NCBI GenBank assembly: GCA_963822445.1
Contig: CAWGHO010000002.1
Location: 1,573,787-1,637,786, forward strand
Source of the DNA: an uncultured Acidobacteriota bacterium
Lineage (GTDB): Bacteria > Acidobacteriota > Thermoanaerobaculia > Gp7-AA8
Reading direction: 5' to 3'
Length of the DNA: 64,000 bases
The stretch's first letter is position 1. The number at the start of each line of letters is the position of its first letter. Positions 48,001 to 51,000 of the stretch are shown piece after piece. A program made the position numbers.

Positions 48001-51000
48001 CTCGGTCAGATGCTGCAGCTCGAGCTCCGTCTGCTCGAGCGCGTCGGGATCGAGCAACTCCCGCAGCTCCGGCTCGCCAAGCAATTCGCGAAGCTGCGAC
48101 TGGTCGATGGCCAGCGCCTGCGCACGCCGCTCGGCGAGCGGTGCGTCGCCGTCATACAGAAAATTCGCAACATAGCGGAAGAGCACTGACGCCGCGAACG
48201 GCGACGGCTTGGCCGTATCCGCGGTGTGCACGTGGATCGTGCGCTGGCGGATCGTCTTCGCGATCTCGACCAGGGCCTGCACATCGAAGACGTCGCGGAG
48301 CGTCTCGCGATAGGCCTCGAGGATGATCGGGAACGACCCGAATCGCGACGCGACCTGCAGCAGGTCGTACGCGCGTTTGCGCTGCTGCCACATCGGCGTG
48401 CGGCCCTGCGCTCGGCGGCGCGGCAGCAGCAACGCGCGCGCCGCGGCCTCGCGGAACTTCGCCGCGAACATCGAGCTCGCTCCGAGCTGCCGCAGGAGCA
48501 GCTGCTCGATCTCATCGGGATCGGGCAGCACCAGCTCCGCGGCCGGAGGCTTGTCCGTCTCGGGGAAGCGGATGATGAAGCCGTCGTCGCTCCACATCGA
48601 TTCGACGTCGATGGCCAGCTCCGCGCGCACTTTCGCGGTCACGGCCATGGCCCACGGCGCGTGAATCTTTCCGCCGAACGGCGTGAGCACGCAGACGCGC
48701 CAGTCGCCCAGCTCGTCCATCACCCGCTCGATGACGATCGTGCGATCGTCCGGGACCGCGCCGGTGGCTTCCTGCTGGTCGGCGAGGTACTGCAGAAAAT
48801 TCTCGGCCGCGTCTTTGTCGAGATCGTGTCTCGTGACGAGACGTTTGATCGCCGCGTCGCGCTTGGTCTCGCGAATCTCGCGCACGAGCTTTCCGATCGC
48901 CTCGCCGAAGGGGACGGTGCGCTCGGCGGCGTCGGCTTTCCAGAACGGCATCTTCCCCGGCTGTCCCGGCGCGGGCGTGACGATCACTTTGTCGTGCGTG
49001 ATCTCTTCGATGCGCCAGGTCGATGCGCCGAGGACGAAAGTCTCGCCGGCGGAGGCCTCGAAGACCATCTCTTCATCGAGCTCGCCGACGCGCGCGGATT
49101 GGTTCTTCTCCGTGCCGGCCAGGAAAACGCCGTACAGGCCGCGGTCGGGGATCGTCCCGCCGCTGGTGATGGCGATGCGCTTCGAGCCCAGGCGCGCGGT
49201 GACCATATTCGCAACGCGATCCCACGTCAGGCGCGGCCGCAACTCCGCGAATTCGTCCGACGGGTAGAGGCCGGAGAGCATGTCCATCACGCCGTCGAAC
49301 GCGGTGCGCGACAGCTCGGCATACGGCGCGGCGCTGCGGATCGCGGCGTACAGATCGTCGACGTTCCAGTCGTCGATCGCGACCATGGCCACGATCTGCT
49401 GCGACGAGGACGTCGAGCGGATTCCGCGGATACCGCGTCGGTTCGATCGTCCCCTCATGCATCGCCTCAGCGACAGCAGCGCAGGCCACGAGATCGCCGC
49501 GGAACTTCGGGAAGATGATGCCGCTCGACTCCGCGCCGACCTGGTGGCTCGCGCGTCCGATCCGCTGCATGCCCGAGGCGATGGATGGCGGTGCTTCGAT
49601 CTGGATGACGAGATCGATGGCGCCCATGTCGATCCCAGCTCCAGCGAGGACGTGGCCACGAGCGCGGGCAACCGTCCCGATTTGAGGTTGTCCTCGATCT
49701 CGACGCGTTGCGCGCGAGCGATCGAGCCGTGATGCGCCTGCACGAGCGTCTCGCCGGCCAGCTCGTTGATCGCACCCGCGAGCCGCTCCGCAAGCCGTCG
49801 CGAGTTGACGAAGATCAGTGTCGACGTGTGCGCGCGAATGAGCTCGAGCAATCGCGGATGAATGGCCGGCCAGATGGAAGGCGAGCGCGGACCGAGCGCC
49901 GCGGGTCCGCTCTGGATCTCCGTCTCCGCCGCCAGCTTGGCCATGTCCTCGACCGGGACTTCGACTTGAGCGTGAGCTTTTTCTTTTCGCCGGTGTCGAT
50001 GATGGTGACCGGGCGGAAGGTGGCGTGGGTGCGGTCGGCCTTCGAATTCGTCGTGGAGCTGGTGTCGGGTTGTCCGGTTGTCGGTTTGCAGGTGTTTTCA
50101 CCCGAGAACCCGACAACCCGACAACCTGACGACCCCCTAGGAAACTGCGCAACCTCTTCGAGTGGCCTCTGCGTCGCCGACAGCCCGATCCTCTGCGGCT
50201 GCTTGTCGCAGCGCATCGCCAGGCGTTCGAGCGAGACGGCCATGTGCGCGCCGCGCTTGTTCGGGACGAGCGCGTGGATCTCGTCGATGATGATCGTCTC
50301 GATGCCGCGCAGGACGTCGCGCGCGTTCGAGGTCGCAGGAGGTACAGCGACTCGGGCGTGGTGATGAGGATGTCCGCCGGGTCGCGGGCGAATTTCGCGC
50401 GTTCCGATTGCGGCGTGTCGCCGGTGCGGGTGGCGATCTCGGGGATCGTGAATTCGTCGCCGCGGGCGCTGGCGACGTTCGAGATTCCGGCCAGCGGCGC
50501 GCGCAGGTTTCGCTCGACGTCGACGGCCAGTGCTTTCAGCGGTGAGACATAGATGCACCCGGCAGCGGCGCTCTTTCGGCGGGCGCGGGCGTGAACATCA
50601 GGCGGTCGAGCGCCCAGAGGAACGCCGTCAGGGTTTTGCCGCTCCGGTGGGCGCCATGATCAGCGTCCAGTCCCCGCTGGCGATGGCCGGCCAGCCCTGT
50701 TGCTGGGCCTTCGTCGGCGAACGCGAACGAGGCCGCAAACCACTCCCGCACAGCAGGATGAAAGACGTCGAGTGTCATGTCTGCTTTGGGAGTGCGCGGC
50801 ATAGTGAGCGTCGTCACGCTGCTGGACAACCTCTGTGACCGCTGCAAGAATAGTGGCCAGTCCCCAAAGGCATGAAGCGGGTGAAGGACGGGCGATGCGG
50901 CTGAAGGTGCTCGGCGCGTATGGAGCGTCGGATGCAGAACACAATCTGACCGGGTACCTGATCGACGACTGGTTCGCAGTCGACGCCGGGACACTGACGT

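Follow-up and report, generated by a model that had tools for sequence, protein, structure and literature searches.

How does a palindrome built of short tandem repeats come to lie inside the gene for a DNA repair helicase? This question is raised by a 64-kb stretch of the source genome of an uncultured Acidobacteriota bacterium of the class Thermoanaerobaculia (contig CAWGHO010000002.1; the whole stretch is called the window here), in which lhr, encoding an Lhr-type DNA helicase on the minus strand (46260..50802), contains an imperfect palindrome of 75 nt at 50061..50135 with tandem octamer arms. We refer to such an element as a tandem-unit palindrome (TUP), meaning that each arm is a tandem array of 7–8-nt units, and we compared it with its counterparts in relatives, each represented by a locus of about 10 kb (L numbers). 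We put the probability at roughly 60% that the lhr TUP is one copy of a group of genome-specific, dispersed hairpin repeats, resembling the Rickettsia palindromic elements (RPEs) and the repetitive extragenic palindromes (REPs), that are tolerated in disordered loops and reshaped by slippage.

Read along the plus strand, the palindrome opens with a G/T-rich left arm (50061..50087) of three GGTTGTC-type octamers, GGTGTCGG GTTGTCCG GTTGTCGG, passes through a centre of about 14 nt, tttgcaggtgttttca, and closes with a C/A-rich right arm (50102..50135) of four GACAACC-type octamers, CCGAGAAC CCGACAAC CCGACAAC CTGACGACC. On the minus strand, which is the coding strand of lhr, the order becomes GGTCGTCA GGTTGTCG GGTTGTCG GGTTCTCG, the centre GGTGAAAACACCTGCAAA, and CCGACAAC CGGACAAC CCGACACC, with four units in the 5' arm versus three in the 3' arm; nothing in the left arm pairs with the outermost right-arm unit, CTGACGACC. 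A repeat finder recovered arms of 22–24 nt that are 88–91% complementary in several 8-nt registers, together with tandem families of 8-nt spacing in both arms, and Tandem Repeats Finder placed period-8 arrays at 50063–50086 and 50100–50135. Folded as single-stranded DNA, the element reaches -26 kcal/mol (z -3.8; none of 200 shuffles matched this), and folded as RNA both strands come to about -48 kcal/mol (z -5.7 and -6.9), an energy never equalled by shuffles. Its 15-mer two-unit pattern has 7 matches in the window versus 1.7 expected. Because the folding, tandem-array and pattern-count statistics all depart from expectation, we take the palindrome to be real and not a product of chance, and the original prediction, made from the sequence of this stretch, that GGTTGTC-type octamers form a palindrome in lhr holds.

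What the palindrome occupies in the protein is a linker that varies widely among relatives. It lies between the SAT/EEVAQF segment and RPVTIIDTGEKK, adjoining the F-L-G-G codons that end the first RecA-like domain (50132..50143, minus strand) and followed by a native, non-palindromic linker tail, QLHDEFE / ADRTHATFRPVT (50004..50060, minus strand). Compared with the Lhr of Mycobacterium smegmatis (PDB 5V9X, 7LHL), which has 18 residues here, the window has 55, or about 37 extra, and in the alignment to 5V9X the site separates the RecA1 block from the RecA2 block. Of the 40 or so extra codons estimated earlier, about a third are ordinary linker; the accompanying claim that the extra DNA is exactly the palindrome fails, as the palindrome makes up only about 75 of some 135 nt and the first 25 or so linker codons, the rest being QLHDEFE-ADRTHATFRPVT.

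The closest Lhr loci all come from Acidobacteriota metagenome-assembled genomes (MAGs), with at most 80% Lhr identity in Thermoanaerobaculia and about 62% in a Vicinamibacterales-like group. Across 76 of them, the segment from EEVARFLGG to (F/Y)RPVTI(I/V)DTGEKK measures 6–92 residues; nine genomes have almost no linker, and the majority of linkers close with the conserved pattern x(I/L)HDEFxDxxKxxFRPVT. The top 120 homologues from the protein database, which include other acidobacterial classes and a few MAGs labelled Myxococcaceae, Casimicrobiaceae and Rhizomicrobium, have linkers of mostly 30–114 residues with the (I/L)HDEF...(F/Y)RPVT tail conserved and, for the most part, no hairpin. Judged from these alignments, the long variable linker is native to the acidobacterial Lhr lineage. 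Since such linkers are common across orthologues, the comparison goes partly against the original prediction, which had treated the extra length as foreign: a 30–114-residue linker belongs to the protein, mostly without a hairpin. The palindrome in lhr thus reflects a tolerant, natively variable linker and not a unique insertion into a compact gene. In an AlphaFold2 model of the TUP-bearing orthologue P0001, built from a 60-sequence alignment, the predicted local distance difference test score (pLDDT) falls to 58–62 at residues 221–250 (the linker) and exceeds 90 in most of both RecA-like domains, with a short helix over the HAEF motif; the palindrome-encoded residues would accordingly be predicted to sit in a flexible inter-domain tether.

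Hairpins in this linker are widespread in Thermoanaerobaculia and absent from the Vicinamibacterales-like group. We typed 69 linkers, the window's included, on a neighbour-joining tree of conserved columns, with a threshold of z <= -3 for hairpins other than TUPs. Strong hairpins occur in 37 of 53 Thermoanaerobaculia (window counted), comprising 22 TUPs (nine of GGTTG type, nine of GGGAGT type and four of AGTCGTC type) and 15 other hairpins; the remaining linkers are short (nine) or lack a hairpin (about seven). In the Vicinamibacterales-like clade the count is 0 of 16 (z -2.2 to +1.2). The AGTCGTC type forms a single monophyletic group, the GGGAGT type is restricted to one clade, and the GGTTG type is scattered over the tree (the window, L019, L013, L030, L031, L035, L036, L040 and L201). 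Where enough flank was available, the orthologues are intact full-length open reading frames (ORFs) of 1,423–1,586 aa, with internal breaks only in two nanopore MAGs, and in L019, L006, L003, L034, L201 and others the palindrome is read through in frame. One of these, P0001 (L201), is a closer, partial orthologue and carries, in frame, GGTTGCGA GGTTACGA GGTTACGG GGTTCCGC / AACCTCGC AACCCCGT AACCCCGA. The linker palindromes take up everything from the second Gly codon up to the residue preceding (I/L)HDEF, and the position in the window is identical. As GGTTG units occur in at least nine orthologues at 70–80% protein identity, the element is probably an old resident of the linker rather than a recent arrival. 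At L053 (about 226–600), the linker palindrome and the flanking EEARYLGAS codons are triplicated in tandem with the frame kept.

Elements of this kind also occur elsewhere in Lhr. A full-length alignment of 70 proteins revealed lineage-specific insertions at two more loops, near residues 960 and 1198 of L011, besides single lineage-specific insertions at other places, and the DNA of the extra loop insertions is in frame and folds into strong hairpins. Sister genomes form pairs of filled and cleanly empty sites at these loops (for example L005 versus L010/L025, L014 versus L015, L002/L009 versus L019, and L023 versus L066). Within one gene the same sequence family recurs: three loops of L066 carry GGAGCGGCGGGGCTTGCCCCGCCG...CGGCGGGGCAAGCCCCGCCGCTCC, two loops in L010 and two in L015 carry the family of the respective genome, and L006 has GACGACTC arrays at two loops. 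At the loop near residue 960 (hot spot 2), L005 carries four in-frame GTCCTATCN 9-mers that encode LSV/PSV repeats, and the same unit builds an intergenic palindrome at L003 (2194–2277).

Over whole loci, recurrence and density were both far above expectation. When each linker palindrome was compared with the rest of its own locus and with 79 other loci, 9 of 36 linker hairpins had a significant match in their own locus versus 0.27 expected (chance per foreign locus 0.0074). A census with a self-BLAST detector counted 67 strong hairpins in 774 kb versus 1 in shuffled sequence, 26 of the 67 being tandem-unit, and an orthologous hot spot after the amidohydrolase gene holds TUPs with different units in L003, L014, L015, L025, L027 and L029. 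The window itself has three further TUPs, all with strong folding on both strands (z -3.8 to -14.8). One, at 20156..20263, is made of GGTTGCTG octamers with 42-nt arms and lies between the divergent genes for a 215-aa ORF (start 20122, minus strand) and a GAF histidine kinase (about 20291, plus strand). Another, at 45397..45468, is made of GGCAGTG / CCTACYG heptamers and lies between nei and the next minus-strand ORF (start 45362), with the last 11 codons and stop of nei (45449–45481) inside its right arm. The third, at 55908..56008, is made of AGTCGTT heptamers and fills the gap from the dnaB stop (about 56008) to the start of the NfeD gene (55902), both on the minus strand. Strong non-tandem hairpin repeats are also present at 37690–37816 and 53628–53788, and the latter has arms of 46 nt, with L007 carrying a related element at the corresponding orthologous position (2143–2293).

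Two regularities of the arrays bear on how they change. Variant units are uniform within an arm and different between arms in L046 (right arm all GACACCC), L013 (GGTTGCGC versus GGTTGCTC) and L060 (right arm all AGTCTTCG-type), a pattern that replication slippage would produce. Meanwhile, arms from the same genome pair better than arms combined across genomes, at -0.83 versus -0.64 kcal/mol per nt in the GGTTG family (permutation p=0.005), with p=0.012 in the GGGAGT family and p=0.21 in the AGTCGTC family (n=4). Such matching could come from selection for pairing, from correction between arms or from replacement by fresh copies.

The order of the arms is nearly fixed. Among the 24 tandem-unit hairpins of the Lhr loci with unequal G and C, the G-rich arm is 5' in 23 and the C-rich arm in 1 (p=3e-6), and without the linker copies the count is 15 to 1; non-tandem hairpins show no G+T arm bias. 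An independent metagenome scan for (GGTTGTCG)2.5 returned at least 120 contigs of GC 0.33–0.68; among those listed, a complementary array lies downstream in 22 and upstream in 0. Because a palindrome reads alike on both strands, this order means that palindromes of the mirror kind, whose C/A arm would come first, hardly occur. Viral contigs, searched for palindromes of GGTTGTC with either arm first, contained none and hence offer no further test of polarity. In the metagenomes, GGTTGTCG arrays come from many habitats, on contigs of 33–68% GC (L083, L086, L175 and L200), and what comes directly after them is often another tandem array with no relation to the first rather than its complement.

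We therefore favor the following account of the lhr TUP as one of many genome-specific, dispersed hairpins. A repeat class common in Thermoanaerobaculia, with arms of 7–8-nt units and the G/T-rich arm first, would exist as genome-specific, dispersed families, mostly packed into intergenic gaps and surviving also in proteins, at those few loops where added residues are tolerated. The chief such loop of Lhr is the disordered, naturally hypervariable linker that joins its two RecA-like motor domains; there the hairpin DNA is translated, the first arm adding G/V/S/R-rich and the second P/T/N/D/Q-rich sequence, in all about 25 residues of low complexity, probably with no benefit to Lhr. Resident arrays would then change by replication slippage, gaining and losing units and letting variant units spread along an arm, and since the two arms stay matched, each lineage would end with its own unit. 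The anatomy, the translation in intact orthologues, the filled and empty hot spots and the recurrence within a genome are observations; mobility, slippage and the lack of benefit to Lhr are inferred. The suggestion that these palindromes are, or were, mobile and resemble MITEs (miniature transposable elements with inverted repeats) survives in part: unrelated hairpins at one linker, filled and empty loops and the 9 of 36 recurrence point to a dispersed, probably mobile class that enters lhr in frame, and the element does have company at other loci, in three more window TUPs and in the own-locus matches of relatives.

Several results weigh against this account. Each of the four window TUPs has a unit of its own, in contrast to classic REP or MITE families, and within the window the lhr element has no second copy that is near-identical. 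For this copy there is also no empty linker site among close relatives, L011 and L008 having a linker of comparable length that forms no hairpin. No target-site duplication was visible in the filled/empty alignment at hot spot 2, where the orthologous DNA is very diverged, and no transposase was found among nine Pfam-scanned window ORFs next to the TUPs and lhr. Hairpin potential conserved at one site across lineages, together with matched arms, could mean selection for structure. It is conceivable, though in our judgement improbable, that the palindrome originated in place with no mobility, from a 7–8-mer of the native linker (such as GGTTGCGA, in Gly-Cys-Glu codons) that was amplified by slippage and copied in inverted orientation by template switching, the units of each lineage reflecting local drift and concerted evolution. 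Some linkers, even non-hairpin ones, start with LGGCE (GGT TGC GAG), a possible local seed of GGTTGCGA arrays; the disparity of the window units, the scatter of GGTTG arrays over the Lhr tree, as an old resident would show, the visible homogenisation within arms and the plain tandem triplication of element and flanking codons in L053 all fit such an origin. However, it does not predict the strict G/T-first polarity, and it is hard to square with within-locus recurrence at about 34 times chance, with one REPIN-like sequence (a REP doublet forming a hairpin) at three separate loops of L066 and with unrelated families in the same loops of sister genomes. Selection for a hairpin with a site-specific job, either as lhr mRNA structure (processing, pausing or attenuation between the part for the helicase core and the remainder) or as a slippage switch that turns the gene on and off as 7- or 8-nt units shift the frame, seems to us less likely still. 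Hairpin potential does persist at the linker while the sequence turns over, arms co-vary within genomes, and the window's four units against three are such that one added 8-nt unit would be expected to restore the FLGG-QLHDEF frame. Against this, nine Thermoanaerobaculia dispense with the linker, about seven have a non-hairpin linker and 16 of 16 Vicinamibacterales-like sequences have no hairpin; arms are often imperfect, as in L046 and L034; no Rfam family matches; and the same elements occur in intergenic gaps and other Lhr loops, so nothing about them is specific to this site.

The state of the gene itself could be taken to tell another story. A frameshift-aware dynamic-programming alignment to the intact L011 orthologue placed 17 frameshift events in lhr, each +/-1 nt, at 83% identity (1246/1493) and with no in-frame stop. 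The divergent neighbour, a metallo-beta-lactamase (MBL)-fold/Apyc1-like gene (50895–51657), has three single-base shifts and no stops at 82% identity to its orthologue, in an alignment guided by an MBL-fold protein. All 20 shifts fall in a patch of 4.5 kb (46972..51483) that contains neither stops nor larger indels, and the genes flanking it (nei, amidohydrolase, GT2, NfeD, Fic and dnaB) are intact. Around the palindrome there are three +1 events: a T near 50144, which must be deleted before F-L-G-G becomes readable, a net +1 within the palindrome and a G near 50040, which splits the linker tail. Because these sum to 3 nt, frame 0 stays open and appears to be a single frame, and the insert is thus not in frame in the window as it had seemed to be. 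The corrected reading is ...EEVAQ / FLGG RQVVGLSGSRVKTPANRQPDNPT / QLHDEFE / ADRTHATFRPVTIIDTGEKKKLTLK / VEVPVEDMAK..., and the previously proposed TSSTTNSKADRTHAT is a misreading of QLHDEFE-ADRTHATFRPVT produced by a frameshift, TSSTTNSK being QLHDEFE out of frame. One more 8-nt unit in the 3' arm would complete the palindrome and restore the FLGG-QLHDEF frame; since such a unit would mend the frame, the error within the palindrome could be a unit slip instead of a 1-nt error. Putative frameshifts at 46136 (in nei) and 53628 were rejected as alignment noise, Pfam covering nei from residue 1.

These lesions invite the idea that a recent MITE-like transposition helped to inactivate lhr and that the gene is now a decaying pseudogene; of its 17 frameshifts, three lie in a span of 105 nt around the palindrome. 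We regard this as very unlikely. In a pseudogene of equal age with a substitution-to-indel ratio of 5–10, 2–5 nonsense codons would be expected, whereas none is present (P(0) about 0.1 to 0.006); 20 of 20 lesions are +/-1 nt, with no stop or larger deletion, at 82–83% identity to orthologues; they fill a sharp patch that reaches into the neighbouring gene; intact orthologues have equivalent in-frame palindromes; and Lhr is similarly broken in two nanopore-derived MAGs (L013 and L073). The most likely cause of the broken frame is instead a local fault of sequencing, assembly or polishing, as in an unpolished long-read stretch, and the frameshifts probably have nothing to do with the palindrome. 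The gene is as riddled with frameshifts as first described, but a link to the palindrome finds no support. No second assembly of the source organism was found among genome contigs or in the protein database, where the nearest Lhr relatives are 80% identical, and among the 120 metagenome contigs listed with GGTTGTCG arrays none is of the same species and none carries lhr. A pseudogene of a Burkholderia or mycobacterial symbiont, an idea prompted by GC content and frameshifts, is refuted by the taxonomy of the orthologues. That the palindrome lies inside a low-quality patch might even suggest that it was made by the assembler, or that its likeness to other elements is fortuitous. This we consider the least probable reading by far, given a folding energy never reached by shuffles, the same architecture at the same site in independent short-read MAGs and its presence in 22 metagenome contigs.

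The lhr TUP and its relatives can be set beside several known repeat systems. In Rickettsia, RPEs are palindromic repeats found in frame in many genes (PMC10969869), and intragenic REPs are enriched in DNA repair genes and helicases, some REPs supplying stop codons (PMC3733652). The likeness to RPEs is broad, as both are short palindromic repeats lying in frame in functional protein genes, translated, placed where the fold tolerates them and present as several families per genome (PMC10969869; PMC3733652). RPEs, however, measure about 100–150 bp and have a conserved peptide per family, whereas the elements described here measure 60–110 bp, have arms of tandem 7–8-mers and vary in unit from copy to copy. 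Their hosts are free-living soil Acidobacteriota, and the two, which differ in taxa and in size, are probably unrelated in sequence. With REPs and REPINs (Di Nocera et al. 2013; Bertels and Rainey 2011), they share the form of genome-specific hairpins, most of them immediately downstream of a gene whose neighbour is co-directional or convergent, and some supplying a stop codon, here that of nei at 45449; the non-tandem linker hairpins of L004, L010 and L066 are, like REPINs, inverted doublets of a small hairpin. The arms of TUPs are tandem arrays, in contrast to the single 20–40-bp stem-loop of a REP. No consistent GTAG/CGTC tag was found by eye on the four window TUPs, GTAG occurring only inside the units of 45397–45468 and once in 55908–56008, and CGTC only in the outer unit of the lhr copy. 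No REP-associated tyrosine transposase (RAYT) turned up among the nine window ORFs scanned against Pfam.

Other comparisons are more distant. The STRRs (short tandemly repeated repetitive stretches) of heterocystous cyanobacteria likewise consist of tandem 7-nt units in non-coding DNA, but they belong to another phylum and have units such as CCCCAGT, as against GGTTGTCG, GGTTGCTG, GGCAGTG and AGTCGTT here. STRR heptamers also lengthen a variable helix, which would be a case of a tolerant site in a functional gene hosting repeat hairpins. MITEs and foldback elements resemble TUPs in being non-coding, dispersed and composed almost entirely of inverted repeats, and the arms of eukaryotic foldback elements are made of short tandem repeats; here, by contrast, no matching insertion sequence or conserved terminal sequence was found, and no target-site duplication was visible between the very diverged orthologues. 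Intrinsic terminators are also a poor match, since on neither strand does a T run follow one of the four TUPs of the window and the TUP at 20156–20263 lies between divergent gene starts, and Rfam over the whole window returned only a tRNA at 16986–17056 and no match at any TUP. Neither tandem-unit palindromes nor their polarity is described in the literature that we searched, which also has no record of such elements from Acidobacteriota, and a full-text search for the unit sequences returned no papers. A bolder interpretation, for which we would claim little confidence, is that TUPs form a distinct, undescribed repeat class in several phyla, defined by the fixed order of G/T array, centre and C/A array and by fast unit turnover, and made or spread, for example, when the two 3' ends of a break are extended with one and the same short unit, or by a transposase specific for hairpins; 7–8-nt units in coding loops could then switch lhr-like genes on and off.

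Among the surroundings of lhr, its stop overlaps the start of nei (46260–46267), a gene for an Fpg/Nei glycosylase (45449–46267), and the lhr-nei pairing is also found in mycobacteria. At 44030–44893 the window encodes a Fic-domain protein with a long K/P/A-rich, low-complexity N-terminal half that is conserved in L009, and at 25185–25232 a two-copy 24-nt tandem repeat with an internal 9-mer repeat, set in a T-rich stretch, is not palindromic.

Overall, in-frame selfish palindromes are textbook knowledge only for Rickettsia, and intragenic REPs are little known, with their bias toward repair genes unexplained. Free-living soil Acidobacteriota repeat the pattern with one repair helicase, three loops and many unrelated hairpin families. 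In practical terms, such elements, which can be mistaken for pseudogene scars, give rise in MAGs to assembly breaks and to variable inserts of low complexity. The filled and empty Lhr sites provide a natural series for studying how DNA enters genes and how proteins tolerate it, and the tandem-unit architecture, the fast turnover of units with matched arms and the near-absolute arm order may point to a specific mechanism that generates these palindromes.

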